NCBI GenBank assembly: GCA_021806615.1
Contig: JAJZRB010000005.1
Span: forward strand, 4,319-68,318
Direction of reading: 5' to 3'
Length of the DNA: 64,000 bases
Origin: a bacterium
GTDB taxonomy: Bacteria > Patescibacteriota > Patescibacteriia > Patescibacteriales > UBA12465
Part shown: piece by piece, positions 17,152 to 64,000 of the stretch
Position numbering within the stretch: position 1 is the first letter of the stretch
How the letters are laid out: each line of letters begins with the position of its first letter
The notes under the pieces: model-generated
Database searches by the model: none
Told to the model about the DNA's origin: nothing
The model's input: the letters and a program-made list of their open reading frames with translations, nothing else
Translations under genes and position numbers: made by a program

Positions 17152-20100
17152 TTATTTAGTCTGGAGGTAAATCTCTTCCACTTGCGCCGGGCTCAAAGCT
17201 CCTTCATAAATTCCTAAGTCGTCTATTTCGGAACTCGCATTATCAGTAAATATCTTCAGATAATTGATATTATCTCCCTCTTTTATCCAAATGAGCGATG
17301 AACTGGCTTTCTCGCCACCATCTACATAAAAGCGTAATTTATAACGATAAGAATCATAGACTAAGGCTAAGTGATGCCAGGCGCTATCATTCGGTATCGC
17401 CTTATCAACTCCTTCCGCTAGAATCCCGTAACTGCCATTAAACCAGAATCCCGGGCGATAAGAATTAACTAAGAAAGCGAGACGATTAGCGCCTCCCGCC
17501 GCCGTACCGTCCAGATAAATATTAGCTCGGCCCTCCCCTGGATAAGCGCTATTGTGCCACCAGAAAGCCAGAGAAATATCGCGCGACTTTATTTCGTCCA
17601 GGTTCGAGGTAAAATCATGGCCGTTGATCGTCTGGATAGCATAATTACCGTGGCTGCGCCCGACCCAAGCTTCAGGCATGATATTAAGAGCCGCATTAGA
17701 TATACTATCCATAGCCATTCCGCCCGCGTCTTCGCTGAAATCCCAGAAATGGATCAAACGCGCTTCCTGCTGCGGTTCACGTCCGGTAAGCGGGCTATAT
17801 GGCGCCTCACGCAGATAATCAGCTAGGATTTCTCCGGCAGAAAGCGGCCTATCCCAAATAGCTGCTTCATCAATAAGCACAGGATCACAGTCTCCATAAA
17901 TTTCCCAAGAATCCATCAGCGGTAAATCAGCCAAGAAATCTTCATGCACTACTTTCTGGCCGTCAATATAAACTTCCCAATAATCCAGAGCCTGGCTTAC
18001 CACCAAAGATACTTGATGCCAGTTTCCGTCAAATTTTGTATCTTTATAATAACGCCAATCAGAATTAGGTAACCCTTCAATAGTCATCATCCCAGGCTCC
18101 AAGATAAGCCGCATCTCATCCCCGTCCGCGTTAGACAGGCTGGAAATAACTCTCGGGAAATTTAGAGATTTTTTATAATAAAAACTCAAAGAAAAACTGT
18201 TCAGATCAGAAGGAGGATTAAGGGGGCCTGAAAATCGGCCGGCGGCCGGACCGACTACCCGAGAGCAATCCCATTTCCCAACTGCCCACTCACCTTCCCC
18301 ATAACACTCGGAAAAATGCCATAGGCCGGCAAGACCGCTGGAAATGATAGGGTCGGGCGGCACGAATAAATCTAAATTCATATCAACGACCGGCTCGGAA
18401 CTGGTAGCTATATTTGGATCATCGGATAATAATAAATCAAAATCGCTTTGATTATCATTATTAAAACCGATGCGATTTAAAAAATAATTATCGCTTATGG
18501 CCGGCGCCGGACCGCTGCCCAGAAAATAAGTCGCGTCCGGACCGAAGCCGACGGCATCCACGATATCAGGATCCGTGCTGGAGCTTATCGCGCCTTTTCC
18601 TAAATAAAAAGTATAACCAGAATCAGCCCAGACAAATTCCGGCCGCGTGGCAATCGCGTCAGCTTGGTCTTGGAAATAATTGTTCGCTTCATCACGGACG
18701 ACTAAATAGTTGCCATGCGCCTTAACTACCGTGCCCCCCGGATAAGAGCCGTCATTCGGATTGCCGAAACGCATCATCAGGCTCGGTTCCTCTGCGGTTT
18801 TTGTCTTAGATAAATGAAAATCAAAAGCGGATAAATCAAGATCATAATCGGTCGGATTATTTATCTCCAGCCAATCGTTGTCGCCGGTCGCGTAAATCTT
18901 ATTGATTAGCGCCAGAATACTGGAGCTAGAAGTCGCCGCTTCTTCCGTAGAAGTCGCTATTTCTCCTGTAGAGGTGGCAACTTCTTCTGTGGAGGTTCCT
19001 ATTCCTTCCGTAATCGTTTCTTCGGTGGTAGTAGCGACTTCGTCGCTGGTTGTCGCTATCTCCTTGGTCGTCGTAGCGGCTTCTTCGGTCGTCGTAGCTA
19101 TTTCTTCAGTCGTCGTAGCTTCATCGCTGCCGATTATTTCCATGGTGGAACTGGCGTTTTCTGACATAAGCGCCGCTCGGGCCGCTACGGCGGACGGATC
19201 AGCGGACGGGAACAAGCGGAAATCAAGCTGATTATTCTCGCTATTATCTTTCCTATCCAAAAAATAATTATCGCTTATGGCCGGCGCCGGACCGCTGCCC
19301 AGAAAATAAGTCGCGTCCGGACCGAAGCCGACGGCATCCACGATATCAGGATCCGTGCTGGAGCTTATCGCGCCTTTTCCTAAATATATGGTATAGCCTG
19401 AACCGGTCCAAGTGAATTCCGTCCGCGTAGCTATGGCATCAGCCTTAGCTTGATAATAAGCATCGGCCGTAGCCCGGACAATCAGGTAATAACCGTGCGC
19501 TTTGATTATCGTGCCGCCCGGGTAAGAGCCGTCAGCGGGGTCACCGAGGCGCATCAATAAAGTAGGATCCTCGGCGGTTTTGGCTCTCTCTAGGCGATAA
19601 CCGGCGGCGGCCAAATCAAAATCATTATCGCCGGGATTGAATAATTCAATAAAATCATTGTCTAGGGTGGCATAAATTTTATTCAATATAGCGATCTTAG
19701 GCTGACCGTCTGCGGCTAGATTAGAGGCCCCGGAGCTGGCCGGAGCAGTAAAATTATTATAGACTACGGGCGGATAATAAGCCGGCGGCGAGGCTTGGCT
19801 ATCGGCCCGTTTATTTTCGGTAGCGGCTTTATTCCCGCTGGCCGCGACTGCAGTATCTTGAGGGCGGCTCAAGACTGAAGAGGGTCGTTTTGAAGAGGCG
19901 GTTTTTCCGGCTACGTTTTTAGGAATGACATCCCCCTGACCGGCGTTATCCTGATGAGATTTAGACGGCACAACTCCAGCTTTCTTGACCGTTACTGAGG
20001 GCGCCGAAGCGACGCTTATCTTGGAAGCCGTGCTTTTAGGGGCTTTAGTCTTGGCGGAGCTTGTCTTGGCGGCGGCTGTTTTTTGAGCCGATTGTGCTCG

Positions 20101-25356: not shown

Positions 25357-28300
25357 TTAGTAGTTGAAGGAATAGCCGTTAACCGGCAAATTCTTTACTA
25401 AGTAGCCATTTCCGTAAGAAGCGGAAGTGGTATCGTTCCATTGCCAGTCAGTACCAGAAGCTAACGCATCAGCTGAAGTTAAGTTCAAGGCTAAATTGTT
25501 AGAATTCAAGGCACCAAGGGCTCCAACGCTAACCTTAACGACATAGGTCTTGCTGCTACCAGAAGAGATTAAAGAATCAGAGCTGAAAGCAACAGCGGCC
25601 GGCGTGTTAGTAGTGGTTAGAGAAACCGGAGCGGCAATCAAGTTAGTAGCCATATCGTTGATGTCATAGACACCGGCGACAGCTACCGTGCTAGCGCCGT
25701 TGAATAACGGAGTAACAGTGAAGGTCTTGAAATTAACCGGGCCGTTAGAAGCGGCGACAGTAAATCTCATCACTTCCTGAGTACCGACATTCAAAGTGCG
25801 GCTAGTCGGAACGTAATCCGACAAGGAAACAGTCGGTTTAGCAGCGACAACTAACATGGTGTTAGCAGCGACAGTCAAACCGGTCTTTTCCGCCGGGGTG
25901 TTGGAACCGATCTGGTATTTAACGTAAGTGGCCGTTAACTTAGACTGGGTTCTAGTCGCCGTAGCGTTAGTACCGACAGTGTTGTAGTTAGCAGTCACAG
26001 TGACGTTAGTACCGACCGTGTTGACCGGAACATCGATATTCAATGTGCCATCAAAGAAAGCGACGTAATCAGAGCCCGATAATACAACCGGGGCGCTTAC
26101 GGTTCCGATGGTCAAAGAATTGACGGAAGTTCCTTCAGCCGTACCGGCATTGTTGGTAACTTTGAACTTCAAGCTGGTAATCTTAGCCGCGCCGTTGGTA
26201 GCTACAAATTTGTAGACAGCCGCAGTCGCGCTAGTGCCACCGACCACCAAAGCGGACGGAGCATCTGAAGAGACCAAAGTCGGATCAGATAAAGTACCAG
26301 TCAAGAAAGTCAAGACCTGACCAGCGGTGTTAGCATCAGCCGTTAAGTTGGTGCTGACCGTTCTAGCCGAGACCTTCAAGTCACTGACAGTCAAAGTGCT
26401 GTTATCGTTGACTTGAGCTACATCAGCATAGATATCAATGGTCTTGGTCTGACCAGGTTGCAAGGTGAAGTTAACCGGGAAGTTGTTAACGCCGGCTATC
26501 GGATTACCAATAACGTTGGTCGGATCTTCAGAAGTATAAAGATTGGAGACGTTAGTGATAACGATGTTACCGCCGCTTACAGCTAAAGTAGCCGCTAAAT
26601 TGGTCGCTCTAACAGCCTCAGAAGAACCAGCCTGGAATGTGAAGGAACCGATCTTCTGTTTCTGGACATTCGGAGAGATGTTCTGAGCTGAAGCGAAAGC
26701 GTTGTTCTTAGACAGGCTGGATAAGCCAGTAGAAACAATCGTCAAAGCTTTAGTCGCGTAAGTTGTTCCGCCGGAAGTGGCGAAAGAAGTCACGCCCTGG
26801 AAAGCTCCGGCAACCGAAGCCGCATTAGTCGTAATTGTGGTAGAGGTGGTTGAACCGCTGTTCATAACTAAATCACCTTTGATTTCCACGGTGGCAGTAG
26901 AGCCAGCCGGGACGGTGAATAAGTTAGTGGTCCCGTAGGTCTTAGTAGCGGTGTAACCGGTCACAGTAGCGCCGGAAACAACGGCATTCTGAGAACTACC
27001 AACCTGAGAGCCGTTAACGTAGATAGCCAGGTTGTTAACACCATCGCCAGAAGCGGTATTCCCGTTGAAGAGAACAGTCGCGTTTAACGTGGTAACCTTC
27101 ATGTCTTCGCCATAAGCTTTCATGGTGTATTTCGCTAAGGTCACATTAGAAGCGCCCTTAACTACTTGGGTAGCGGCAAAAGTCGGGTCAGCCGCAATCA
27201 CCAAAGAACCAACGTTAATATTGGCTGAAGTGGTGGTTTGCGGTAAGCCAGTCGCAGCGACATTAACGTTGTAGTTGGTATCAACTAAAACGATATCGGA
27301 AGCGGTCTGGATGGAGAAGCTGAAATTGGTATTAGAGCCCTTGATGATATCGCCTCTCAATTCTACGGTCCTGTTGCCAGTGCTCAATAGATAAGGAGCG
27401 GCGGATAAATCAAAGTTAACTCTATTATCGCTATTGACGGAAGAAGCCGAACCGACTTGGGTTCCATCAACATATAATTTCAGATTCTGGATAGCATCGC
27501 TAGCTACTGAACCGATCTGTCTGAAGCTGACATACTTTAAATTAACAGCTTTGTTGCTGATAGTTAAAGGAGCGGACCAAAGAGTCGCGTTCATCGTACC
27601 GGCATTGACATTACCAGAACTGGTAACAGTACCGGCGACGACAGTCGCTAAATCAGTCGCAGTCACAACAGACATTAAATTACCAGTAAGCGGGAAAGAG
27701 CCAGTTACGCTAGCGCCAGTGGAAGTAACATCGGAAGCGGCGTTAACCGAGAAACCGACATTACCAGTGGCATTAGCCGCGACATCAGCTTTCACAGTGA
27801 TCGCTCTGGTCTGACCAGCGTTAACAGTAAATAATCCATTGTTATTAGAGAAAGTAACTACGCCGTTAGATAAGGAACCGGCGTCAGTCAATTTGGTATT
27901 TCCATCATAAAGATAGATAGACGATAAAGTGCTATCGGAAGAAATACCAACTCTCTTCAATTTTAAGGTCTTAACCGTAACTGCACCGTCATTAGCGGCG
28001 GTGAAGTTAAAGGTAGCCATATCAGCGATTGATTGGCCACCGCCAGAGGTAGTAACAACGTTAGAAGCCGCTGCGGTAGAAGAGCTTAAAGAAACCATCA
28101 AGCCGGAACCGGTGACAACCGGACCGGAGCCGCCATTCTGGGCAACATTGACTAAGGCAGTTTCCGCGGCGCTAACTTCAGTTCCGCCGGCCGTAACGGT
28201 CGTAGCAGAAGTGATAACGTTAGCTAATTGGAATCTGTTAGCAGTCAAAGCCGCTTCGTTGGCAACTTTTCTGTAGTTAGTACCATCATAGTAATAAACG

Positions 28301-28818
28301 TCAGCACCGCTGGCATTTTTTACTAAGGAACCGACCGGAGTAGCGCCATTAGCTAAAACAGCGCCGACAGTGTAGTTGGTGAAGAAAGCATCCGGAACGT
28401 CAACTACTCTCTTGTTCCAGTTAGTACCGTATAGAGCAGCCGCTTGCGCTTCGCTCTGGATCTTTCTGAGAGTGCCGTTAGGTTCAACAGCATAGACAGA
28501 AGGATCGGTAGTGATCTTCACTAACTTCGTACCCGGTCTCATGGTCACATTGCCGCCCAATGGGTAGCTTTGTAATTCAGCTGACGGGATGGTTACCACG
28601 CCGCTGAAATCAGGGTACCAGGAGAAATAAGTAGTGGAGTTAGGGAAGACATATCTCTTGCCATCGGAGCCAAGGTAATATACGGAGGAGTTGCCGGCCA
28701 TTTTGATCAAGTCGCCAGCCGAAGCGGCGGCCGAAGCCGGAGAAACAACGATACCGCTCATCGCGATAACCGATAATACCATTACGCCGATAACTAAGAG
28801 TTTGCGTAATTTTTTCAT
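25357..28818 (-). CDS. S-layer-like / major cell-surface protein, Thr/Ser/Val/Ala/Asn-rich, with repeated beta-sandwich-like modules
   Basis: Signal peptide: MKKLRKLLVIGVMVLSVIAMSGIVVSPASA. I could find no Cys in 1153 aa. Module motifs recur: IYLYDGNTKL, LKLYVDGTQVGS, LAIYVNGSQVGS. The N-terminal repeat occurs twice (GDLIKMAGNSSVYYLGSDGKRYVF and GSLVKNASGADVYYYDGTNYRKV). Confidence 0.65.
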   Translation of the reverse strand: MKKLRKLLVIGVMVLSVIAMSGIVVSPASAAASAGDLIKMAGNSSVYYLGSDGKRYVFPNSTTYFSWYPDFSGVVTIPSAELQSYPLGGNVTMRPGTKLVKITTDPSVYAVEPNGTLRKIQSEAQAAALYGTNWNKRVVDVPDAFFTNYTVGAVLANGATPVGSLVKNASGADVYYYDGTNYRKVANEAALTANRFQLANVITSATTVTAGGTEVSAAETALVNVAQNGGSGPVVTGSGLMVSLSSSTAAASNVVTTSGGGQSIADMATFNFTAANDGAVTVKTLKLKRVGISSDSTLSSIYLYDGNTKLTDAGSLSNGVVTFSNNNGLFTVNAGQTRAITVKADVAANATGNVGFSVNAASDVTSTGASVTGSFPLTGNLMSVVTATDLATVVAGTVTSSGNVNAGTMNATLWSAPLTISNKAVNLKYVSFRQIGSVASDAIQNLKLYVDGTQVGSASSVNSDNRVNFDLSAAPYLLSTGNRTVELRGDIIKGSNTNFSFSIQTASDIVLVDTNYNVNVAATGLPQTTTSANINVGSLVIAADPTFAATQVVKGASNVTLAKYTMKAYGEDMKVTTLNATVLFNGNTASGDGVNNLAIYVNGSQVGSSQNAVVSGATVTGYTATKTYGTTNLFTVPAGSTATVEIKGDLVMNSGSTTSTTITTNAASVAGAFQGVTSFATSGGTTYATKALTIVSTGLSSLSKNNAFASAQNISPNVQKQKIGSFTFQAGSSEAVRATNLAATLAVSGGNIVITNVSNLYTSEDPTNVIGNPIAGVNNFPVNFTLQPGQTKTIDIYADVAQVNDNSTLTVSDLKVSARTVSTNLTADANTAGQVLTFLTGTLSDPTLVSSDAPSALVVGGTSATAAVYKFVATNGAAKITSLKFKVTNNAGTAEGTSVNSLTIGTVSAPVVLSGSDYVAFFDGTLNIDVPVNTVGTNVTVTANYNTVGTNATATRTQSKLTATYVKYQIGSNTPAEKTGLTVAANTMLVVAAKPTVSLSDYVPTSRTLNVGTQEVMRFTVAASNGPVNFKTFTVTPLFNGASTVAVAGVYDINDMATNLIAAPVSLTTTNTPAAVAFSSDSLISSGSSKTYVVKVSVGALGALNSNNLALNLTSADALASGTDWQWNDTTSASYGNGYLVKNLPVNGYSFNY

Positions 28819-29308: not shown

Positions 29309-30211
29309 CTATTTGATTATCTCGTCTACTTCCTTGAGCTTGTCGACGGCTTTCGTATAATCTTTCTGATTGAATAACTGGGTCGCTTCATCTAGGATCT
29401 TATCGGCGGCTGAAGGATTATTGACGGCGGCATCAGGCGTAGAACTAGCTTTTTCCAGGCTAGTCGTCGCTCCCTCATCAACCGTCGTCTTATCGGTACT
29501 AGTCGCTTCATCCTTTACAGACGCTTTCTCCACTAAGGATTTAACCGTTCCGGTCGCCTCCTTTACGTCAGGAGCCAAGGCGATATCGGACTTTTCCATC
29601 AGTTTGATTCCCTGTTCATCCTTAGAATTCTCGGCAATCATCACGTCGTCAGTATTGGTCCCCGCTACAGCGCTAGCTGGAGCCGCTTTAGGAGCGGCGG
29701 CCAAACGTCCGATATGGTTCTTAACCGTATTTACTTCCTGCTTGAAACTATCATTCAATTTAGCGACCTGATCTTTATTCGCTTCTGTATTAAAAGCCGG
29801 ATCAGCTAAGACGGCGCTGATATCCTGCGCGTGCTCGCTCGCGAACTGTACGGCGAGCTTATCGCGCTCTTCGGGATTAAAAGTCGTATTTATCTTCACT
29901 TTCTCGGAAATCACCCGAGCGATATATAAAGAATCGTTAGGTTTCGCTTTAGCTAAGATCTGCTGGCTGAATAAACTGCCGGACAGCAAGAGCATCACAA
30001 AAATGCCAAGCGCATAAGCCGGCTGTGAAATGGCTTTCATGGAACTGGAAAAATCAATTAAAAATATTTTCCAAGCCGGCAAATCTACCGCGCCGGAATT
30101 TGATATTTGGGATAATAAAAGAGCCCGATTGCTTTCCAGCCAATTTTTATCGGGGCCTAATTTTTTCAGACTATTTAATTTAGCGATTAGCTCTTGGTCA
30201 GTCATACACAA
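29309..30211 (-). CDS. single-pass membrane protein downstream of the sigma factor (anti-sigma-like / DUF5667-like)
   Basis: One TM segment (AYALGIFVMLLLSGSLF) about 60 aa from the N-terminus. Stop-to-start distance from the sigma gene is 26 nt. The anti-sigma role is inferred from position only. Confidence 0.5.
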   Translation of the reverse strand: MCMTDQELIAKLNSLKKLGPDKNWLESNRALLLSQISNSGAVDLPAWKIFLIDFSSSMKAISQPAYALGIFVMLLLSGSLFSQQILAKAKPNDSLYIARVISEKVKINTTFNPEERDKLAVQFASEHAQDISAVLADPAFNTEANKDQVAKLNDSFKQEVNTVKNHIGRLAAAPKAAPASAVAGTNTDDVMIAENSKDEQGIKLMEKSDIALAPDVKEATGTVKSLVEKASVKDEATSTDKTTVDEGATTSLEKASSTPDAAVNNPSAADKILDEATQLFNQKDYTKAVDKLKEVDEIIK

Positions 30212-30237
30212 TAGTATACGTATAATTAGCTGAAATG

Positions 30238-30846
30238 TTACAGTTTTCCTTCTTTTTCTACGAGTTCTTTAAGGGCGCTTAAAGCCCGATGTAGCGTTAC
30301 CCGGATACTGCCATTGCTTTTTCCGCTAATATCGGCTATTTCTTCTATTGACAAATCATTTATGAATTTCATTATAATGAGTTCCCGATACTCTTCTTTA
30401 AGCTTGGGCATGAGCTTTTTAATCAGGCTCAAGTTAGCTTCCTGGTCTAAGCGTTCCGAAGGGCTTTGCGCTTCATCAATAACATCTATTGGGCGTTCTT
30501 CATTATCTAAAGAAACGGTAATTTTATTGCCTGTTTCGCGGTAATAATCAATAATTGATGTCCTGGCTATCTTATACAAAAGAGACCGCAAAGTTTTAGC
30601 GTCCTCTAAAGTTTTATTCTGGATATAGTTCCAGGTCTTTAAAAAGATAATGGAAGTCAGATCATTAGCCTCTTCGCGCTTCCCTATCTTAAAATAAACG
30701 AAACGATGGATTTCGGCCACGTTTTCGTCATAAATCTTAATGAAAGCCTGTTTGTCTCTATTTTTCAGACGGCTTAGAATCTGCTTATTTTTAAATTTTT
30801 TTATCGGGTTAAGAGCCATGTTGTCAGATATTTTTTCTTTTAACAA
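30238..30846 (-). CDS. RNA polymerase sigma-70 family factor (ECF-like)
   Basis: Region 2 (IHRFVYFKIGKREEANDLTSIIFLKTW) and region 4 HTH (LSIEEIADISGKSNGSIRVTLHRALSALKEL). Confidence 0.85.
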   Translation of the reverse strand: MLKEKISDNMALNPIKKFKNKQILSRLKNRDKQAFIKIYDENVAEIHRFVYFKIGKREEANDLTSIIFLKTWNYIQNKTLEDAKTLRSLLYKIARTSIIDYYRETGNKITVSLDNEERPIDVIDEAQSPSERLDQEANLSLIKKLMPKLKEEYRELIIMKFINDLSIEEIADISGKSNGSIRVTLHRALSALKELVEKEGKL

Positions 30847-31051
30847 AAAATAACGGGAGTCATTTCACCCGCCGCCAACCATAGAAATCAATGTTAAATT
30901 CTGCTGTTTATCCTATCATAATAGGCCCTAAAAAGCAAGTAAATATTGTTAATATTAGGTACGCAAATAAATCTTAAAATGATCATCGCGCAACTATCTT
31001 ATTTTAAAATGACTAATTTATTTATTCTTTTAAATTATATAGCCTACTCTC

Positions 31052-31080
31052 TTGACTTTATTTTATTAAATGAATAATAT
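31052..31080 (+). promoter_or_regulatory. candidate promoter P1 in the AT-rich region
   Basis: TTGACT (31052..31057), a 17-nt spacer, then TAATAT (31075..31080). The predicted TSS falls inside the palindrome at 31085..31096. Confidence 0.45.
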
Positions 31081-31084
31081 AGTA

Positions 31085-31096
31085 AGACTTAAGTCT
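31085..31096. promoter_or_regulatory. 12-bp perfect palindrome AGACTTAAGTCT (operator-like)
   Basis: Self-complementary. It shares the AGACT/AGTCT half-site with the downstream inverted repeats. Confidence 0.5.
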
Positions 31097-31199
31097 AAAT
31101 AAATATGGACTTAAAGATGATTTTTTATCTTGATATATTTCTTTCCCACCAAAATTTTTATAAATTACCGAGCTTGGCTAATTTATAAATTATGTAAAT

Positions 31200-31227
31200 T
31201 TGACATAATTCAATAAATATATACTAT
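31200..31227 (+). promoter_or_regulatory. candidate promoter P2 for the HTH gene
   Basis: TTGACA (31200..31205), a 16-nt spacer, then TACTAT (31222..31227). Confidence 0.35.
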
Positions 31228-31230
31228 TTT

Positions 31231-31250
31231 AGTCTAATATAATATAGACT
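31231..31250. promoter_or_regulatory. inverted repeat AGTCTA-N8-TAGACT (operator-like)
   Basis: 6-bp arms with the same 8-nt spacing as the stronger repeat at 31285..31320. Confidence 0.45.
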
Positions 31251-31284
31251 TAAATAATTATTTTATTTTTTATTAGCATATTTA

Positions 31285-31320
31285 TATATTTAAGTCTAAA
31301 ATAGTCTAGACTTAAATATA
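31285..31320. promoter_or_regulatory. 14-bp perfect inverted repeat TATATTTAAGTCTA-N8-TAGACTTAAATATA, 15 nt upstream of the HTH gene ATG
   Basis: The arms at 31285..31298 and 31307..31320 are exact reverse complements. A nested 10-bp palindrome AGTCTAGACT lies at 31303..31312. AGTCTA half-sites start at 31293 and 31303, 10 bp apart. Confidence 0.7.
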
Positions 31321-31335
31321 TAAATTAACATAAAA

Positions 31336-31602
31336 ATGACACCAGAAGCAAACTTTCCAATTAAAGAAGTGGGCTTCCCTATTTGGGTCTCTGTCTCGGA
31401 AGCCGCTGATCTTGGCGGCGTCCAAGGAAAAACGATCAGACGGGCTATCAAGGCTGATCCTAATTTACGATATAAGATAGTGAAAAATCGTTATCAGATT
31501 GAGCTCGGTTCCCTCCTAACTTTCCTCCATAAGAATACTAAACTCAGAAATAAGCTGGAAAGTTCCGGTTTGGGGCAATACGTATCCGCCTGGAAAGCAT
31601 AA
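31336..31602 (+). CDS. small helix-turn-helix DNA-binding protein (excisionase/MerR-type HTH)
   Basis: VSVSEAADLGGVQGKTIRRAIKA fits the HTH_17-like pattern (xxxxEaAxxLgvsxxTixRxik). 88 aa, followed by a strong terminator. Confidence 0.6.
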   Translation: MTPEANFPIKEVGFPIWVSVSEAADLGGVQGKTIRRAIKADPNLRYKIVKNRYQIELGSLLTFLHKNTKLRNKLESSGLGQYVSAWKA

Positions 31603-31603
31603 A

Positions 31604-31636
31604 AAAAACACTCCGGATTCCGTCGGAGTGTTTTTT
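31604..31636 (+). terminator. rho-independent terminator of the HTH gene
   Basis: ACACTCCG-gattccgt-CGGAGTGT followed by TTTTT. Confidence 0.8.
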
Positions 31637-31662
31637 ATATAGTTTTTTCTAACTGCCTGAAA

Positions 31663-31697
31663 CTGATTACTGATTACTGATTACTGATTACTGATTA
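31663..31697. repeat. (CTGATTA)x5 perfect heptanucleotide tandem repeat
   Basis: 35 nt, five exact units. The last TTA is the HU stop codon (TAA on the minus strand). Confidence 0.95.
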
Positions 31698-31976
31698 AAG
31701 AACCGCATCTTTTACAACCTTGGCTAAACGGAATTTTACTACAGTTTTTGCCGGGATCTTAATGGTTTCACCGGTCGCCGGATTACGGCCTTCTCTGGCC
31801 TTTCTGTGTGCTTTGACTAATTTGCCGAAACCAGGAAGAACGCATTCACCGCTCTTTTTAGCCTCTTTATACACGAAACCGGCTAAAGTATCCATAAAAC
31901 CAGCGGTTTCCTTCTTGCTTAATCCGGTCGCTTCCGCTAAAGCGGCAATCATCTGCGATTTTGTCATTTTTGACAT
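31695..31976 (-). CDS. hup: DNA-binding protein HU
   Basis: LPGFGKLVKAHRKAREGRNPATGETIKIPAKTVVKFR is the canonical HU/IHF arm. 93 aa. Confidence 0.93.
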   Translation of the reverse strand: MSKMTKSQMIAALAEATGLSKKETAGFMDTLAGFVYKEAKKSGECVLPGFGKLVKAHRKAREGRNPATGETIKIPAKTVVKFRLAKVVKDAVL

Positions 31977-32184
31977 AATTTTAGCATGGGGCTTATTAAT
32001 AAATAGTCATAAAGACCGTTTAATAATAATGTCCTTTAATAATTACTATTAAAAATTAATTAATATTTCTTAATATCTAACGGGTGATTTTTAAACAACT
32101 TAGTAAAAGCTCAATGTTTATATAGACATTATAGCACACCTTATAAAATATGCCAATAAACACGGGGGCTTTCAATAACTAGGC

Positions 32185-33089: not shown

Positions 33090-35558
33090 TTACATTATGT
33101 TCGGCTGGAGATGATAGTAAGGCGGGTTATCCTTATAGCGCTTGATGGCCAGGCGGATTATTTCCTCAAGAAAATCCCCGTAGTCCAGGCCGACGACTTC
33201 CGCCGAAGCGGAGAAAGTCCCTTCCGCGTCTAAAGAAGGATTGGGATTAAGCTCTAAAACGTAAGGATTATTATTCTTATCAACCCGTATTTCCACGCGT
33301 CCGTAGTCATGGCAATCCAGTATATTATAGGTATCCAAGGCGATCTCCCCTAAGAGCGTCTCTAATTTCTTATTAATATTCTTCGGCGGACGCTGGACTA
33401 AGATCTTATTATACTCGCCGCCATCCGTATATTTCGCCTCAAAAGGATAAATATGCCATAAATTTTCCGGCAGGGCGTCAAAGATAGAACGAGCGAGCGG
33501 CAAAACGCGCAGATCGTCTTCTTCGCTTCCGATTATCGGGACATCATATTCGTCACCATCTATATATTCTTCTATCAAGGCGGGGCGCCGCACTTCTTTC
33601 AGGACTCTCTCTAACTGGCGATAGAGTTCTTCCTTATTCCTGACTACCGAGTCATTAGTGATGCCGATAGAATTATCGGTATTAGCCGGCTTGACGATGA
33701 GGGGATATTTCAAATCATCTCGGATATCATCATCCAGCGAATAGACATAATCCCATTCCGGGGTCGGAATCTTGTGATAGCTCAACAATTTCTTGACCCT
33801 TATCTTATCGATGCACAGGCCCAGAGTAAAAGGATTGGAACCGGTATAAGGAATCTGCAAGGTATCGAAGATAGCGGCGGCATGCGGCTCTAATAAGCTG
33901 GAATTATTTATCCGTTCGCAAACATTAAAAATCAGGTCAACATCGCTGTTTTTAAGCTCATTAAAAGCTTTGGGCAGATCATTAAAATCAAAAAAGCTTA
34001 TCTTATACCCCCGCTCACGCAAGGTTTTTTCAATATCCCGGCCGATGACGGTCAGATCGTTTTCTACGGCCGTCTCCTGATCGGCGGCCGCTTCTTCATA
34101 CAGATTACAGGCGATGCCCACGTGCAGGTTGCGCTGGCTGGTGATAGCCATGCGCCTTATCTTCTCGATCTTGGAGCGGCGCTTGAGAATATCCACGTTT
34201 ATCGCCGAAACGGAAAATGGCGAACGGCGCGTCGTCTTGCCGATAGAAGAGGCCGGGTGGAATTTCGCGACTTCATAGCTCACCATCTTTTCCACTTCGC
34301 GCAGGTTATCTTGAGCGTCCAGAGCGTTGCTGCCGGTAACCAGTATCCAACCCAGATATTCATAGCCGTCGGGCGGGGATAGGACGGAGTCTCCGATTTT
34401 CTTTTCAAACTGGAATTCCCTGACATAAGGCTGGCGCTTCAGATCCTCGGCTATTTCCAGCTGGACCACGATGCCGGAATAGTTAGCCGAGAAAGTGTCC
34501 GCGATCAAATATTCATAGGGACCGTTCGGAAATTCAAATTTCGGGATATAGATGCCGCAGGCGATCTTAAGGAGATTTTCTATCAGATCGACATGCCAAG
34601 CGGCTTTTACGCTCGGATAGACCTCGTCTCCTCCGAGGCGTAAATTTATCTCTAAGGGCACCGGGCCGCGAGGCGTAGACTTGGCTTCAAAATGGATGCA
34701 GCCGTTCAAGACTCCTAATTTTTCCAAGCTTTCATCAGCCATGGCCAGAAGTTCGGCCTGATTTTTCAGCGGCAAGCTGGAGGGCGTCGTCCGCGTCGTC
34801 TCAATGAAAAACGGCTCCTTAGTCTTGCCATTATCGGAAATAGCATAAAATTTTATCTTGCCGTTCTGGATAAGGATGTCCAAGTCCACTTCGTCGCCGT
34901 CGATATATTCCTCCACGAAAACCTCCAAGCCGTCGTTCAAGGCCGACTCTATCTTAGGCGAAATGTCTTTCTTGATATAGTTATAGCTTTCGCGCAATTC
35001 TTCTTCATTATTTACTTTGACCACAAAAGCGCTCGCCGCGCCGTAAGCCGGCTTGACCACGAGCGGAAACTTGAATGTTTTCACTACCTCGTCAAGATCT
35101 TTCGGCCCTTTCAGTTCGCGAAAACGGACAGCCGGCAGATGATTAGCAGCGCAAAATTCCCGTAAAGCATATTTATTACGGACGCGGTTGGCGACTTTAT
35201 AAGGCGTACCGATCAATTTATACCTATCGGCTATCTTAGCCGTCAAAAGGACGTCATCTTCTAAGAATGTGATGACCCCATCCAGCTTTATGTCCGGATT
35301 ATTCTTTAGAAAAACATCTAGCGCTTCCAGCGCTTCCGCGTAGTTGAGGGTATTGGCGGTCACGCTATAGTCTACATAAGGCTGGAAGCTGCTGGCTTCC
35401 CGGCTCAAGACGATAACCCGAAGACCAAGGCTTTTTACCTTGCGAATGAAAGATTTTTTAGAGTGGAGAGGGTCGTTGGCTCCGGCCGTATTAACGACCA
35501 GGACCGTCTTATCTATCAGCGAACTGCGGTGCGAATCCGGGTTCCCATTGCCGTTCAT
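33090..35558 (-). CDS. fusion of two ATP-grasp ligase modules (N-terminal carboxylate-amine-ligase-like + C-terminal D-Ala-D-Ala-ligase-like)
   Basis: Module 1: FPLVVKPAYGAASAFVVKV, VEEYIDGDEVDLD, LEINLRLGGD. Module 2: LQIPYTGSNPFTLGLCIDKIRVKKLL, YPLIVKPANTDNSIGI, LIEEYIDGDEYDVPIIG, YGRVEIRVDKNNNPYVLELNPNPSL. Confidence 0.8.
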   Translation of the reverse strand: MNGNGNPDSHRSSLIDKTVLVVNTAGANDPLHSKKSFIRKVKSLGLRVIVLSREASSFQPYVDYSVTANTLNYAEALEALDVFLKNNPDIKLDGVITFLEDDVLLTAKIADRYKLIGTPYKVANRVRNKYALREFCAANHLPAVRFRELKGPKDLDEVVKTFKFPLVVKPAYGAASAFVVKVNNEEELRESYNYIKKDISPKIESALNDGLEVFVEEYIDGDEVDLDILIQNGKIKFYAISDNGKTKEPFFIETTRTTPSSLPLKNQAELLAMADESLEKLGVLNGCIHFEAKSTPRGPVPLEINLRLGGDEVYPSVKAAWHVDLIENLLKIACGIYIPKFEFPNGPYEYLIADTFSANYSGIVVQLEIAEDLKRQPYVREFQFEKKIGDSVLSPPDGYEYLGWILVTGSNALDAQDNLREVEKMVSYEVAKFHPASSIGKTTRRSPFSVSAINVDILKRRSKIEKIRRMAITSQRNLHVGIACNLYEEAAADQETAVENDLTVIGRDIEKTLRERGYKISFFDFNDLPKAFNELKNSDVDLIFNVCERINNSSLLEPHAAAIFDTLQIPYTGSNPFTLGLCIDKIRVKKLLSYHKIPTPEWDYVYSLDDDIRDDLKYPLIVKPANTDNSIGITNDSVVRNKEELYRQLERVLKEVRRPALIEEYIDGDEYDVPIIGSEEDDLRVLPLARSIFDALPENLWHIYPFEAKYTDGGEYNKILVQRPPKNINKKLETLLGEIALDTYNILDCHDYGRVEIRVDKNNNPYVLELNPNPSLDAEGTFSASAEVVGLDYGDFLEEIIRLAIKRYKDNPPYYHLQPNIM

Positions 35559-47811: not shown

Positions 47812-49422
47812 ATGATCAACCCGCGTCTCCTCATAATCGTCCTCGGCTTAGCTATATCCGCCGTTTTTTATCTTATTATCTATGTCCTGATAAAATACGG
47901 GCCGAAATTTTATCGCTTTACTAAATCCATCGCCGCTTCTCTCGGACTAGCCTTAATAAAGAATGAATATATCGCCGGATTCCTGTCCACCCATCAACAA
48001 ATAGCTATCTTCTTGAAAAAGCGTTCCAATCGACGGTCATTTTGGGGCTTGAACGCCACTGTGCTCGGCTTGGCTTTCTTATATACGCTCTTCGCTTTTT
48101 TGGGCTTGATAGAGGATTTCATCACTTCCGCCCCGATCGTCGCGGCTGACGTCCGTCTCAATAACCTCTTACTCTTATTCCGTTCGGATTATTATGTCAG
48201 GATATTCCTAGCTATTACTACGCTTGGCCGAGCAGAAATCATCATCAGCTTAACAGCCATTATTAGCCTATTATTCTGGCTTTGGCACCAAAAAAGCTAT
48301 ATCTTGCCTCTCTGGCTCTCTTTGATAGGTTCCAGCTTATTAAGCTTCTTAAGCAAATTAGCTTTTGAACGTCCTCGGCCGCCCCTAGCGGTCTATACGG
48401 AGACTAGTTTTTCTTTCCCGAGCGGACATGCGACGGCGGCCGTCGCTTTCTATGGTTTTCTTATCTATTTTTTATTGCGCCATACTAGAAGATTACTGAA
48501 TAAGACTTTTATCCTACTCATAGGATTGGCCCTGATACTCGCGCTGGGATTCTCGCGGCTATATTTAGGTGTCCACTATTTAAGCGATGTCTTAGCCGGC
48601 TATCTTCTAGGCGCTCTCTGGCTCATCTTAGGCATAAGCTTCAGCGAGTGGCAATTAGACCGCAAACAAAAATCGGCCGCGACAAGAGACGTCCCGGACA
48701 AGACAAAAGCAAACCTCCGCATAAAACTCATCACGATCATCTTATTGCTCGCCGAAATGGGTTTCTCCCTTTATTTTGCCCTCCATTATCGCCCGGCGCG
48801 ACCGGAAATCGCGGCCGAAAGCCCGGTCTTCGTCGCTGATATTTTCAGCCTGCCCGCCCGATTCACCCTGCCACATTATACAGAAACTATCACCGCCGCC
48901 AGCCAAGAACCTTTGAGCTTTATGGTCTCCGCGCCAAGCGATGAGAGCTTGGTCGCCGATTTCCGCCAAGCCGGCTGGCTTTTGGCCGATCCTATAAACG
49001 ACGAATCGCTAGGCAAGGCCGCGCGGGCCGCTCTCTTCAACCAGCCTTATCCGGACGCTCCTATGACGCCCTCCTTCTGGAATGGTGAAACCCATACGTT
49101 CGGCTTTGAAAAAGCCACTAGAGATAACAGCATCCGGGAGAGGAACCATGCGCGCTTCTGGAAAACCAATATCAAGACTGGCTCAGGAAATACTATTTAT
49201 GTCGGAACCGTCAGCCTGGATACGGGGCTGAAATGGGGCGTCACTCACCGCATAGCGCCGGACATAGACACCGAACGGGAACGTTTATTCCAAGACCTGG
49301 AAAGCTCCGGGAAAATCATGGATTACAGGAAAGAAAACTTCGTACCGCCACTCCTCGGACGAAATTTTACCGGCGACCAATTCTTTACCGACGGCCAGAT
49401 TTACATGCTTATCTTAAAATAA
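47812..49422 (+). CDS. PAP2-family lipid phosphatase fused to an LssY-like C-terminal domain
   Basis: PAP2 motifs KLAFERPRP, PSGH and SRLYLGVHYLSD. The C-terminal ~220 aa (NHARFWKT...TIYVGTVSLD) resemble the LssY_C type. Confidence 0.75.
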   Translation: MINPRLLIIVLGLAISAVFYLIIYVLIKYGPKFYRFTKSIAASLGLALIKNEYIAGFLSTHQQIAIFLKKRSNRRSFWGLNATVLGLAFLYTLFAFLGLIEDFITSAPIVAADVRLNNLLLLFRSDYYVRIFLAITTLGRAEIIISLTAIISLLFWLWHQKSYILPLWLSLIGSSLLSFLSKLAFERPRPPLAVYTETSFSFPSGHATAAVAFYGFLIYFLLRHTRRLLNKTFILLIGLALILALGFSRLYLGVHYLSDVLAGYLLGALWLILGISFSEWQLDRKQKSAATRDVPDKTKANLRIKLITIILLLAEMGFSLYFALHYRPARPEIAAESPVFVADIFSLPARFTLPHYTETITAASQEPLSFMVSAPSDESLVADFRQAGWLLADPINDESLGKAARAALFNQPYPDAPMTPSFWNGETHTFGFEKATRDNSIRERNHARFWKTNIKTGSGNTIYVGTVSLDTGLKWGVTHRIAPDIDTERERLFQDLESSGKIMDYRKENFVPPLLGRNFTGDQFFTDGQIYMLILK

Positions 49423-50913: not shown

Positions 50914-52188
50914 CTAAGCTAAAGCCGCTAAATCGCGCTTTATCGCTTCTTGCAAGAGTTCGGGACTCGCGAATTTTTGGACATCGCGCAATTTCCGCTT
51001 GACTATTATCCTTACTTTTTCGCCATAAATATCCGCCGAAAAATCTTTGATAAAGACCTCTAAAGAAGGCGGCTCATTAAAGACATCCTTGAAGCCGAAA
51101 TGCAATAATCCGGCGTATTCTTTGTCTCTAACCATGGCCGAAACAATATAGACGCCGTGCGGAATATCTAAATCGACCTTGTCTAGATTCGCTGTCGGAA
51201 AACCGAGAGCTTTTCCTCTTCCCTGGCCGTGGACGACTTTCGCCACAAAAGAGGTTTTCGGCTTATCTAAAGACGAGACTTTGAAGAAAGCTAGAAGCAG
51301 GACCAAGGCGGCAAGAATCTGGATCGGGGTCAGATAGTTCTTATTGAAGACATAATCCAAGACTAAGGCGGAAAAAGGCCAGAAGAGCTCTAGAATGGTC
51401 GCGGCCGAGGCTGAAACGCGCCGCAGACCGAAATAATAGATGAACATCGCGCCGGCGCCACTCGTAAAGACAATCAGGACGAGAAGCCACCAATGCCGGA
51501 GATCAATCTGATGGAACTGTAAAATGGCGCCATCCGCCCAAATCAGGATAAAGACCAGGACGGCAGTCAGGCCGAACCGCAGAGCCGCTACAGCCTTATA
51601 GTCTAAATGGTTAGCGACGCGCTTGCCGAAAACCGTGGAAGAGCCGAAGGCAAAAGCGGCTAAGAAAGCGAATAAAGCGGCATTATGCTGCCAATTTATG
51701 GCGCTGATGTCTAGGCCGGTCTTGGCAAAAGCGATGAAATAACTGGCGATTATCGCTAAAGCGGTCCAAAAATAGAAACGGCGCGGCAATTTTTCCTTTA
51801 AAACCAGGCGCGCGAGAAACAGGGCAAAAATCGGCTGGAGCTTTTGCAAAATAACGACCGTGGCAAAAGTCACCTCTCCATTAACAGCGGCGAAAAAGGC
51901 CTTAGTGATCATTATCGTCCCCAAAAGTCCGCCAAATAGGCTGACCCAGAGGACTGAACCCCAGCTCTTATAGCTTAATGATTTGATCTTTTCCCAATCG
52001 TAGAAGATAAAAGGCGCCAGAACCATGAACCCTAAGGCATGTTCACAAAAAACCACTAATTCCGCCGGCAATAAGTAGAATTGCGGCCTGATAAACAAGC
52101 CATCAATGCTCCACAATAGAGCGGCAAGCATGATTGCCGCCGCACCGGCTAAAGTATAGGGATTAAATCTGGATAATATTTTTTTCAT
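50914..52188 (-). CDS. fusion protein: EamA/DMT-family 10-TM permease + riboflavin kinase domain
   Basis: Residues ~1-300 are hydrophobic EamA-like halves. Residues ~305-424 carry VVHGQGRGKALGFPTANL, HGVYIV, LEVFIKDFSADIYGEKVRI and DVQKFASPELLQEAIKRD (RibF C-terminal-type kinase). Confidence 0.75.
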   Translation of the reverse strand: MKKILSRFNPYTLAGAAAIMLAALLWSIDGLFIRPQFYLLPAELVVFCEHALGFMVLAPFIFYDWEKIKSLSYKSWGSVLWVSLFGGLLGTIMITKAFFAAVNGEVTFATVVILQKLQPIFALFLARLVLKEKLPRRFYFWTALAIIASYFIAFAKTGLDISAINWQHNAALFAFLAAFAFGSSTVFGKRVANHLDYKAVAALRFGLTAVLVFILIWADGAILQFHQIDLRHWWLLVLIVFTSGAGAMFIYYFGLRRVSASAATILELFWPFSALVLDYVFNKNYLTPIQILAALVLLLAFFKVSSLDKPKTSFVAKVVHGQGRGKALGFPTANLDKVDLDIPHGVYIVSAMVRDKEYAGLLHFGFKDVFNEPPSLEVFIKDFSADIYGEKVRIIVKRKLRDVQKFASPELLQEAIKRDLAALA

Positions 52189-52382
52189 CCCTTAATTATA
52201 GCGTAATCGCCCTGATTTCCGCAATAAGCTTCAAAAGAGACGGAGTTATCAACTTGTGCTTAGTCTCATATTATTAGATAATGGAGATAACAATAATAAA
52301 AAGGAGTTATTATTGTTTAAAAGGACTTTAACATTCCAAAACATAATACCTATTCACCAACCACAAATATTGAGGCAGACAT

Positions 52383-61465: not shown

Positions 61466-62032
61466 TTATTTATCATTTAAATCATTAACAGCCCGCTCCA
61501 ATTCAGACAAAAGCTTAGGGAACAGCTTCTTGCCCTGCGGCGTCTTGATCCGGTTTGTCAGCTCGGCCTTAAACAGATTAATTACCTTGGAATAACTTTC
61601 AGGTTGATATTTTTGCTGCAAATGTTCAAGGCACAGCTTGCTCAGACTATCTGCGTCAACAATTATAGCTTCGTCATCGTTGAAGGATTTATGCTTGTCG
61701 GCCGCGCTTACCAATCTATTGACTGTCTGAATTTCTTTCTCAGTAAATTGCAATCTGGCGAGAACTTCAGAAATTAATTTTGAAGAATTATCGTTGGCTT
61801 TAGACTCTAATTTAATCATCTCGTCTAAGTCTATCTTCCCTTTAGGAGCTACTCCCGACCAACCAATGTCATGGATATAGGCGGCAGTAACTAACAAATC
61901 TAGATCAACTCGGCCACTTCCGAGTTCTTTTACCCATCTGACAACCCGGAGAGCATGTTCCCAGTCACCAGCACGAGCAGAATCAAAATATGGCTTGGCT
62001 GTTTCTTCCAGTTTTTTTTCGTTGAATTTCAT
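61466..62032 (-). CDS. HD-domain metal-dependent phosphohydrolase
   Basis: H...HD pattern: WEHALRVVRWV and AAYIHDIGW. Confidence 0.75.
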   Translation of the reverse strand: MKFNEKKLEETAKPYFDSARAGDWEHALRVVRWVKELGSGRVDLDLLVTAAYIHDIGWSGVAPKGKIDLDEMIKLESKANDNSSKLISEVLARLQFTEKEIQTVNRLVSAADKHKSFNDDEAIIVDADSLSKLCLEHLQQKYQPESYSKVINLFKAELTNRIKTPQGKKLFPKLLSELERAVNDLNDK

Positions 62033-62089
62033 ACTAAATTGTCCTTTCGCTTATACTCACACGAAAGTATGCTTATTTTATTCATATAA

Positions 62090-62596
62090 TTATATTTTGG
62101 CATCTTTGGCTGACTGAAGCAGCACAATATCTCTTGGCACAATATATAATCTACCTTCATCATTCCGCGCTTTGTCATTTTTTAAGAGTTCAATGGCTTC
62201 ATCGATATCAAGCCATTGAACGCCGAATCCTCCCTCAGTTTCCTCGGGGGTATACGCCGGGATCCCTTTTGTTCCAATTACTTTGGCCAAATATACGTAG
62301 GATATCTGTTTCAACTGGAATATCTTTCTATATTCAACTATTTGGCCAACTTCATCGTAGGCCTCTATATTGCAACCCAACTCTTCCTGACATTCCCGTT
62401 TTAGTGCCTCTAAAATATCTTCACCTTTTTCGACGCCTCCTCCTGGAAGCTTATGATAATTTTCATTCGAAACATGGAGAATACCTATTTTACCGTTTTG
62501 ATCATAAACGATGGCTCGAGCGCATTCTCTAAATTGATATTTGGCAATCTCTTCCTCTAACGCGTTTTCTGGATTAAGAATTCCTAAAGATTTCAT
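62090..62596 (-). CDS. NUDIX hydrolase
   Basis: Nudix box GGGVEKGEDILEALKRECQEELG (G-x5-E-x7-REUxEExGU). Confidence 0.88.
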   Translation of the reverse strand: MKSLGILNPENALEEEIAKYQFRECARAIVYDQNGKIGILHVSNENYHKLPGGGVEKGEDILEALKRECQEELGCNIEAYDEVGQIVEYRKIFQLKQISYVYLAKVIGTKGIPAYTPEETEGGFGVQWLDIDEAIELLKNDKARNDEGRLYIVPRDIVLLQSAKDAKI

Positions 62597-62677
62597 AGTA
62601 AATTATTTATCTAATTTTATTTATTGTGCATTAAACTATGTATTTTAATTATATCTTAAATGTATTAAATATAAAAA

Positions 62678-62707
62678 CCAGGAGTAGGATTCGAACTAAC
62701 AACCTCC
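62678..62707 (-). other. tRNA-like 3' fragment (T-loop plus acceptor-like remnant)
   Basis: The minus strand reads GGAGGTTGTTAGTTCGAATCCTACTCCTGG and contains a canonical TTCGAAT T-loop. The T-stem is imperfect and there is no D-arm or anticodon arm upstream. Confidence 0.3.
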
Positions 62708-62998
62708 TTTATTTACGGCGCTTTTCTTCATCCTTGACTCCAACAAAAAAACTCAGCCTAAACTGAGTTATTTTGATTTTTTGCTGATATTAAAGGATAT
62801 ATCTCGGTCAATAACACAAAAAATGTGATGGCTCCCCACTCCTGTCCTATACCGCCAGCATGGGGGTTTCTAAAAGATTTCCGGAGATCTTTTTTGTAGG
62901 AATAAGGACGCGGATCGGTCGGGGTCTAAAATAAATGAGACAAATGGGGCACTAAAATGGGCTTATTTTTTACTGAATATTGACAAATATCAATATAT

Positions 62999-63439
62999 AT
63001 GATATTATTCAAAATCAGTAAAAATATGCTTTATTCGCTAATCATACTATCTGGCGTCGCAATATTTGTAGGATCTCTTCTCTCCCCTATCACGGGGAGA
63101 AATAATACTGATATTAATTTCCTGCGCCCTGGCCAGAAACAATTTAATAAATCGAAGGATAGCGAAAACAATTATAAATCAGGGCGAACCGGCATTACAT
63201 ATATAAATGAAAATGGTTATCGCTGCTTTAAGGATAGTAATATACTATTTCACCGCTGGATGATGGAAAAACATTTAGGTAGAAAGCTGCGACCGGGAGA
63301 AGTGGTCCACCATACTGATGGCAATAAGCTGAATAACTATGCTTATAATCTGATGGTATTCCCTAGCCAGGAGGCGCACGATAGCTATCACCGTTATAAC
63401 TTTCATTATCGCGGGACCTGGCGGACTTCTATATTATAA
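62999..63439 (+). CDS. HNH endonuclease with an N-terminal membrane anchor or signal
   Basis: HNH motif VVHHTDGNKLNNYAYNLMVFPSQEAHDSYH and hydrophobic N-terminus LYSLIILSGVAIFVGSLL. The real start may be ATG 63026, because TTGACA (62980..62985), a 17-nt spacer and TATTAT (63003..63008) overlap the first ATG. Confidence 0.7.
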   Translation: MILFKISKNMLYSLIILSGVAIFVGSLLSPITGRNNTDINFLRPGQKQFNKSKDSENNYKSGRTGITYINENGYRCFKDSNILFHRWMMEKHLGRKLRPGEVVHHTDGNKLNNYAYNLMVFPSQEAHDSYHRYNFHYRGTWRTSIL

Positions 63440-63539
63440 TAAATGACAGACTACTCTTGCTAAAAAATAGCCTTAAAGAGGTTATTTTTTATTAAAAAGG
63501 CATGTCATAAATATTGACACGCCTTCAATCTACTTAAAT

Positions 63540-63974
63540 CTAATACCTTTCACTTAACATTCGGTGATATTCTTCTTCTGGAACTAAATGCTCTTTTAAC
63601 AGTTCCCATCCGGTTACGCCCCGGTTCCTCGTGTCTTCGGCCATATCTTGGTTATTCTTATCACCCTCGACATAAAAGTGATCGGCATCGTCTGGCAGAA
63701 TCTTAAGCTTGTCGAACCCTAAAAGGAATAAGACAAATAATCTATTGTTGCCATCAACAGTAGAATATTTGTATTTTAAATTATCACTTTTAGTAATGGA
63801 AATTTTTTCATCAAAAATTCTTTCCGGATTTGCCAAGAAATAATCAACCGACTCCTTCTTGAGAATATCCTCTGTCGGTTGTATATCATGAATACTAACA
63901 ACTTCAAACCCTTGGTCTATTTCATTTTTGACTACTATAAAATTTCGTTCCGGGTCACTGAATATTTTCAGCAT
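63540..63974 (-). CDS. hypothetical protein (weak ParB/Srx-like DGNNR motif)
   Basis: 144-aa ORF with a GGAGGAGGG RBS upstream. STVDGNNRLFVLFLLG faintly resembles the DGxxR motif of the ParB-like nuclease fold. Confidence 0.4.
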   Translation of the reverse strand: MLKIFSDPERNFIVVKNEIDQGFEVVSIHDIQPTEDILKKESVDYFLANPERIFDEKISITKSDNLKYKYSTVDGNNRLFVLFLLGFDKLKILPDDADHFYVEGDKNNQDMAEDTRNRGVTGWELLKEHLVPEEEYHRMLSERY

Positions 63975-64000
63975 TTGCCCTCCTCCAGTAAGTGGATAGA
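63968..64000 (-). CDS. 3' end of an ORF entering from beyond the window (…SIHLLEEGKC*)
   Basis: The stop TGA at 63970..63968 overlaps the ATG of the next gene (ATGCTGA), suggesting translational coupling. Only 10 codons are visible. Confidence 0.25.
   Translation of the reverse strand, partial: SIHLLEEGKC

Follow-up and report, generated by a model that had tools for sequence, protein, structure and literature searches.

Facilitated uptake of a vitamin, driven by its phosphorylation in the cytoplasm, is known from PnuC with NadR and from PnuX (RibM) with RibF, and the choline importer LicB, a member of the drug/metabolite transporter (DMT) superfamily, works with the choline kinase LicA. Here we describe a gene found in a 64,000-nucleotide (nt) stretch of contig JAJZRB010000005.1 from a member of the Patescibacteria (the whole stretch is referred to below as the window), which, by its domains, is an ImpX-family DMT permease joined to a riboflavin kinase in one polypeptide. 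The logic that we propose for this protein is that of PnuC/NadR and PnuX/RibF, in which the carrier equilibrates the uncharged vitamin and the kinase traps the charged product, although their transporters are of the Pnu family, unrelated to DMT, and their kinases are proteins of their own. LicB (7paf, 7b0k), a DMT importer, also takes in a substrate that becomes phosphorylated inside the cell, and it is the best structural match to the permease half, with a template modelling score (TM-score) of 0.78, but it carries another substrate, shares ~17% sequence identity with the window protein, and relies on a kinase that is separate and unrelated.

The closest described transporter is ImpX, which was cloned from F. 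nucleatum and rescued a riboflavin-auxotrophic E. coli strain (PMC4418817). Like the permease half of the window protein, ImpX is an EamA/DMT permease with ten transmembrane (TM) helices and the signature W..DG, H, QKLQP, LKE, T..GK, R, YY.GL and E..P. Unlike the window protein, which has a C-terminal kinase and no riboswitch, ImpX is ~300 amino acids (aa) long, lacks a kinase and, in Fusobacterium, is controlled by a flavin mononucleotide (FMN) riboswitch. It has been reported only in riboflavin-synthesising Proteobacteria, Firmicutes and Fusobacteria, and the authors of that study considered the coexistence of ImpX and riboflavin synthesis puzzling and suspected that the distribution of the protein was underestimated (PMC4418817). 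An earlier note on this DNA, made from its letters alone, had stated that both ImpX and another riboflavin importer, RibN, are DMT members; ImpX does score as an EamA protein, and RibN has been annotated as a DMT family transporter (PMC10012899).

On the kinase side, the RibF proteins (T. maritima 1mrz, S. pneumoniae 3op1 and C. ammoniagenes 2x0k) have a homologous kinase module with the same PTAN motif, glycine loop and catalytic glutamate, but they carry an N-terminal adenylyltransferase module where the window protein has the permease, and the kinase of the window protein is slightly shorter (~111 aa). RbkR is an archaeal protein that acts both as a riboflavin kinase and as a regulator of genes for riboflavin synthesis and uptake, and the transporters under its control are RibU and RibT, a protein of the major facilitator superfamily, with no DMT protein listed (PMC5397151). 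It resembles the window protein in that a riboflavin kinase domain is fused to a partner that handles the riboflavin supply, but in RbkR that partner binds DNA, and its kinase is of another family (PF01982).

The earlier note had described a single unbroken open reading frame (ORF) of 424 aa, with ten hydrophobic segments in two EamA-like halves and riboflavin-kinase signatures at the C-terminus. The ORF listing contains this frame, all four of the peptide strings quoted in the note are found in its translation, and a hydropathy scan gives exactly ten hydrophobic segments. Pfam places EamA (PF00892) twice, in two stretches of aa 1-302 (E 1e-28, 100.7 bits against a gathering threshold of 28.2), and Flavokinase (PF01687) over aa 313-421 (E 3e-28, 99 bits, cutoff 19.6). 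An AlphaFold2 model, built with 58 homologues in the alignment, has a predicted local distance difference test score of 86.7 and a predicted template modelling score (pTM) of 0.86, and shows ten long helices, then a small beta-barrel and, last, a C-terminal helix. With Foldseek, the first 300 residues of this model match the DMT transporters YddG (5i20), LicB (7paf), TPT, CST and SLC35B1, with target TM-scores of 0.6-0.78, while the last 110 residues match riboflavin kinase modules (3op1, 1mrz, 5a8a, 1nb0), the root-mean-square deviation to 5a8a, 1q9s and 1n06 being 2.1-3.5 Å. None of the solved chains among the Foldseek matches covers the permease and the kinase together. The last transmembrane helix, TM10, ends at approximately aa 306 (nt 51271), and only a short linker separates it from the first strand of the kinase. 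In the fused proteins for which it was measured, the offset between the end of the permease match and the start of the kinase match, taken as the distance between the two profile-model boundaries, lies with few exceptions between about -1 and +6 residues.

A sequencing or assembly error at the junction could join two adjacent genes into one, and the earlier note had proposed looking for the junction in an independent assembly and comparing fused and split forms in related genomes. A nucleotide-identical, unbroken gene is present both in ENA ERZ27237050 (79.6-kb contig) and in Logan SRR13189623 (17-kb contig), to which the window is 99.995% identical over 21.3 kb and 100% identical over 17.2 kb, respectively. 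The single ORF is also kept in homologues that have diverged to 34-77% identity, in hundreds of samples. Thus, an assembly artefact is excluded. Of 5.8 billion protein clusters searched, the 120 best homologues (60-99% identical, ~410-450 aa) all carry both Pfam domains. The fusion is widespread. A scan with one genome per species found a relative encoded in 325 species genomes, mostly Patescibacteria, and in 77 of the best 80 loci of that scan the fusion is a single ORF. One of the other three is cut by a contig end, and the remaining two, L072 and L077 (labelled SR1), are in pieces under genetic code 11, although tblastn nonetheless aligns nearly the whole protein in both. SR1 bacteria decode UGA as glycine, which would explain the split of L077. 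The only truly unfused genes among the related loci are L080 and L082, in which a stop codon directly follows TM10.

The groups named in the titles of these records are Falkowbacteria, Parcubacteria, SR1, Moraniibacteriota, Roizmanbacteria and Paceibacterota, and the genomes with a relative include a complete Falkowbacteria chromosome (CP066698.1). Long contigs with the fusion include ERZ21878242 contig_1 (911 kb) and FLOH01000015.1 (831 kb). Some third-party bins bear implausible labels, on which we did not rely. Four PF01687-type fusions that are 55-59% identical to the window protein (L035, L036, L039 and L081) are binned as Woesearchaeota, Nanoarchaeota, Methanosarcinales or simply 'archaeon', and these are either mis-binned Patescibacteria contigs or cases of transfer into archaea.

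The permease half belongs to a narrow subfamily inside the large EamA superfamily, given that a search with it against 1.84 billion cluster representatives returned few matches, 1028 at E <= 0.001 and 92 at E <= 1e-30. Fused (~420 aa) and unfused (300-320 aa) members are interleaved in the ranking of these matches, Flavokinase being present in 17 of the top 150 representatives, and no proteobacterial organism appears among the named top relatives (RibN is a proteobacterial family). A tblastn search of PLSDB with the permease half led to Fusobacterium vincentii (NZ_CP084075.1, 2.1 Mb), in which a 299-aa EamA gene lies directly behind an FMN riboswitch (RF00050, 118 bits). Both of the primers with which impX was cloned in PMC4418817 flank this riboswitch and gene, with three mismatches each (chance expectation 0.00), and the riboswitch and the primer matches together identify the gene as impX. 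Aligned over 300 aa, from TM1 to TM10, this ImpX and the window protein share 36% identity and 60% similarity (E 7e-62). Against the family profile, ImpX reaches 360 bits; its identity is 50-54% with unfused members of the family and 44% with the archaeal fused form described below. Judged by these alignments, the permease half is an ImpX-family protein. The record that holds the Fusobacterium gene is filed as 'plasmid pSB055A' (L174) with one annotated feature, and, with its 2.1 Mb and its chromosomal genes, impX included, it is evidently a Fusobacterium vincentii chromosome.

The three groups of the family (bacterial fusions, archaeal fusions and unfused members) have a signature in common, which ImpX also shows. 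Its near-invariant positions are W26, D29, G30, H50, T95, Q115-K-L-Q-P119 and E132 in the first part of the protein, and T185, K189, R204, Y252, G254, E267 and P271 in the second. The QKLQP motif in TM4, which also served as a pattern for our genome and metagenome scans, stands out, with Q115, Q118 and P119 conserved in 100% of all three groups, and its counterpart in ImpX is LLQKLQPIFAI. Several of the conserved charged residues lie within membrane helices. Lysine and arginine residues are very unevenly distributed, with 16 in the even-numbered loops and the N-terminus vs 3 in the odd-numbered loops, and by the positive-inside rule this predicts that both termini, and hence the kinase, face the cytoplasm, the compartment that holds ATP. 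One further protein of the permease subfamily, P0210 (574 aa), has a C-terminal HAD-family hydrolase and no kinase. Some HAD phosphatases hydrolyse FMN, and this single case could represent the reverse arrangement of the transporter-kinase fusion.

The kinase half corresponds to the C-terminal part of RibF, as the earlier note had supposed. The NCBIfam RibF models (TIGR00083, PRK05627) match through that part alone (model positions ~173-313), their equivalog scores of 58-74 bits are far below the cutoffs of 184-461, and Pfam finds no FAD_syn domain in the fusion protein. Among solved structures, the kinase modules of bacterial RibF come closest (3op1 and 1mrz, E 1e-14), ahead of monofunctional eukaryotic kinases. 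The residues expected of an active enzyme (Table 1) align with those of solved kinases. For instance, the PTAN motif aligns with the same motif in C. ammoniagenes FADS, T. maritima RibF and the S. pombe and trypanosomatid RFK, and SLEVF, which contains E377, aligns with SVESF of 5a88 and 2x0k, an entry titled 'E268D mutant' being among the PDB matches. When conservation was counted over 192 distinct fused kinase domains, T332 was found in 191 and N334 in 187, and E377 in all of the 188 that were ungapped at that position; G321 (190/192), G325 (188/192), Y347 (187/192) and R401 (187/192) are almost as constant. Residues so nearly invariant point to an enzyme under selection rather than to a decaying or purely structural module, and the catalytic residues of the kinase are intact and under purifying selection. 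In one Patescibacteria genome (L062), two fused ImpX-kinase genes lie in tandem (9968..11233 and 11242..12519); the second has degenerate kinase motifs (GNSG for GRG, NTAD for PTAN) and may be a paralogue whose kinase function is altered or lost.

Table 1. Features of the fusion gene and of the region upstream of it (positions in the window; -, reverse strand;., no strand)
Feature	Position	Strand	Basis
Complete coding sequence of the fusion, 424 aa, ATG start, stop codon at 50914..50916	50914..52188	-	ORF listing, Pfam, homologues, independent assemblies
Permease half, aa 1-306, ten TM helices, two EamA repeats, ImpX family	51271..52188	-	Pfam, hydropathy, identity to ImpX, DMT fold
QKLQP motif, aa 115-119, TM4, strongest signature of the family	51832..51846	-	Alignment of three groups
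Linker LDKPKTS, aa 307-313, from TM10 to the first kinase strand	51250..51270	-	Hydropathy, AlphaFold2 model
Kinase half, aa 314-424, a riboflavin kinase domain as in the C-terminal part of RibF	50917..51249	-	Pfam PF01687, NCBIfam, PDB, fold
Glycine-rich loop GQGRG, aa 321-325, predicted to bind nucleotide phosphate	51214..51228	-	Aligned with GxGRG of solved kinases
PTAN motif, aa 331-334, with putative catalytic T332 and N334	51187..51198	-	Alignment to solved kinases
E377, counterpart of E268 (catalytic base) in C. ammoniagenes FADS	51058..51060	-	Alignment to 5a88, 2x0k
Intergenic region of 194 nt shared with a divergent RNase J/CPSF-like gene, without FMN riboswitch	52189..52382	.	Rfam, reading of the sequence

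The association of this permease with riboflavin kinases extends beyond PF01687. In a protein of 428 aa (P0138), the same permease is fused to PF01982, the cytidine triphosphate (CTP)-dependent riboflavin kinase of archaea, and three further fusions of this kind, 47-49% identical to P0138, were found in other samples. The contig of P0138 also encodes the exosome protein Rrp4, SBDS, a proteasome alpha subunit and the RNase P protein Rpp14, and these archaeal marker genes identify it as archaeal. A metagenome scan that used an alignment of unfused members as its query gave 80 loci, around 67 of them with scorable upstream sequence. In seven of these loci (L094, L095, L096, L099, L103, L105 and L136), an unfused ImpX-type gene is directly preceded, on the same strand and within 65 nt, by an rbkR-like gene encoding a winged helix-turn-helix domain and a CTP-dependent kinase. 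An eighth has a stand-alone kinase of 130 aa (PF01687) in that upstream position, and a ninth is fused. Given that a genome typically has approximately one riboflavin kinase gene, eight adjacencies in ~67 loci are far above chance. Thus, two different riboflavin kinase families recur as fusion partners or neighbours of the ImpX-type family. We also considered a single origin of the fusion, which was not upheld, as fused and unfused forms are intermixed in a rough neighbour-joining tree; the tree is too crude for counting fusion or fission events.

We consider it probable that the fusion protein imports riboflavin through an ImpX-type carrier, phosphorylates it to FMN with adenosine triphosphate (ATP) and thereby traps it metabolically. 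The N-terminal ten-helix permease would bring riboflavin across the membrane into the cell, and the C-terminal kinase, tethered to the cytoplasmic end of TM10 by the seven-residue linker, would make FMN with ATP. Charged FMN would be unable to return through the carrier, so that the vitamin would be trapped and the inward gradient of riboflavin would stay steep. We infer each of the elements of this proposal, namely transport, its direction and the kinase activity. The direction of import is suggested by analogy with the behaviour of ImpX as an importer and by the limited biosynthesis of the host lineages (PMC12114108), and we likewise infer that the kinase would act on newly imported riboflavin, that trapping instead of ion coupling would drive the uptake and that the host would rely on external riboflavin.

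Apart from this indirectness, several observations weigh against the import-and-trapping account. The 36% identity to ImpX is slightly below the 38% that was first used to define orthologues in PMC4418817. The two unfused genes L080 and L082, from Patescibacteria, are close orthologues (59% identical), and no kinase was found within 10 kb of either of them, so that the fusion is not obligatory for the transporter. The FMN riboswitch RF00050 is absent from the window (Rfam, at gathering and at permissive thresholds) and from 16 related loci; the riboswitch is a regulatory trait of some lineages and not a property of the protein, and the support that it gives for the substrate is therefore taken from the Fusobacterium impX. 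No FMN adenylyltransferase was detected in 1.28 Mb of sequence flanking the fusions or in 0.68 Mb flanking the unfused genes by tblastn, a search of limited sensitivity with a single distant query (the N-terminal domain of E. coli RibF), and the route to flavin adenine dinucleotide (FAD) is thus left unexplained. Finally, Gracilibacteria, which are Patescibacteria, have been described as possessing pathways for riboflavin, FMN and FAD (PMC9166423).

The most serious competing account leaves the function as it is and differs in how closely the two halves are coupled. The permease may import riboflavin, and the kinase may be no more than the general riboflavin kinase of the cell, tethered to the membrane for the convenience of co-expression at a ratio of 1:1, with neither channelling nor gating. 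The occurrence of unfused orthologues on their own in related genomes, the existence of kinase genes that are separate but adjacent, and the intermixing of both forms in the rough tree, which suggests that the fusion is easily gained and lost, all fit such an arrangement. The shortness of the linker and its almost unchanging length fit it less well, as do a high whole-chain pTM that suggests, in the model, a defined arrangement of the domains, and a fusion that arose with two different kinase families, although none of these points proves channelling; on balance, we regard mere co-expression as possible but rather unlikely. A tighter form of coupling can also be envisaged, as a joint reading with several parts. 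The kinase would be docked at the cytoplasmic gate and take riboflavin from the transport path, in a vectorial phosphorylation resembling group translocation; its catalytic cycle would drive or gate the ImpX carrier, so that riboflavin would be released only as FMN, outside the phosphotransferase system (PTS); the arrangement would have arisen separately in bacteria, with ATP-dependent kinases, and in archaea, with CTP-dependent ones; and it would be the sole entry of flavin cofactors in many Patescibacteria and DPANN-type archaea. Taken as a whole, this seems to us improbable.

A different role for the C-terminal domain is also conceivable, namely that of a sensor which binds riboflavin, FMN or a nucleotide and gates the permease as feedback, without being mainly catalytic. 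There is a precedent in RbkR, whose kinase domain doubles as a regulator, with CTP stimulating and FMN suppressing DNA binding, but RbkR itself stays catalytically active (PMC5397151). The fusion genes have no riboswitch, so that some other control would be needed, and the second tandem copy in L062, with its degenerate motifs, would suit a binding domain. Nevertheless, pure binding would not need the catalytic threonine, asparagine and glutamate and the glycine loop, which are almost invariant in the fused domains, and we thus find a sensor very unlikely. It is harder still to credit a reading in which the permease works outwards, secreting flavins for extracellular electron transfer or cross-feeding, or carries a flavin analogue. 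Many DMT proteins are exporters, including YddG, one of the top structural matches, but ImpX imports in the complementation assay (PMC4418817), and bacterial impX genes are under FMN-riboswitch repression, as are genes for uptake and synthesis. Furthermore, phosphorylation just before exit through a riboflavin carrier would be metabolically senseless, the Patescibacteria and DPANN-type archaea in which the family occurs have a low biosynthetic capacity (PMC12114108), and extracytosolic flavinylation is reported to be under-represented in the candidate phyla radiation (PMC8238504).

Both of the component families were known already, as was trapping by phosphorylation as a principle. The earlier note knew of no characterised example of the fusion, and we likewise found no description of a permease-riboflavin kinase fusion in the literature searched, which covered few subscription journals. 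In databases, the homologues are labelled either 'riboflavin kinase' or 'EamA family transporter'. As far as we found, three points are new: the two proteins are physically fused, such fusion has recurred with two kinase families, and ImpX relatives occur in Patescibacteria and in DPANN-type archaea, into which an experimentally validated family of riboflavin transporters thus extends. To a specialist, the finding should be a real but moderate surprise, and it is useful for annotation: as a Rosetta-stone case, it makes the function predictable for hundreds of proteins that now carry one or the other of these labels. The fusion protein also offers a compact system for probing the coupling of transport and phosphorylation outside the PTS, and it gives a hint for cultivation, in that the medium for these ultra-small hosts should probably contain riboflavin.

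With respect to the genomic context, the earlier note saw no riboflavin biosynthesis genes in this DNA, and a Pfam search of 48 ORFs of the window agrees, finding neither rib genes nor an FAD synthetase domain in these 64 kb, a small part of the genome. The ATG of the fusion is preceded, at 6 nt, by a perfect TATAAT box (within 52189..52220), whose position suggests a leaderless or near-leaderless mRNA. The flanking genes of the fusion differ among genomes. We considered a functional tie to the downstream uppS gene, which is 35 nt away, and dropped it, since uppS is a neighbour in this lineage only.

Several other features of the window are worth recording. An 822-aa protein (33090..35558, -) consists of two ATP-grasp units, the N-terminal one resembling L-amino-acid ligases and the C-terminal one D-Ala-D-Ala ligase, and a 536-aa membrane protein (47812..49422, +) combines a PAP2 phosphatase domain with an LssY_C domain. 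Two of the ORFs are especially large. The one at 17152..21120 (-, 1322 aa) has Peptidase_C92, lamin-tail and Laminin_G_3 domains and probably encodes a surface protein, and the other (25357..28818, -, 1153 aa) has zero Pfam matches. The GC content falls to 35-36% in 30001..32000 and 62001..64000, compared with ~46% elsewhere; the second of these stretches adjoins an HNH endonuclease gene (62999..63439) and may be foreign or mobile DNA. The only two Rfam matches in the window are a bacterial class A RNase P RNA (16656..17035, -, 207 bits) and an 84-nt tRNA (10407..10490, +).

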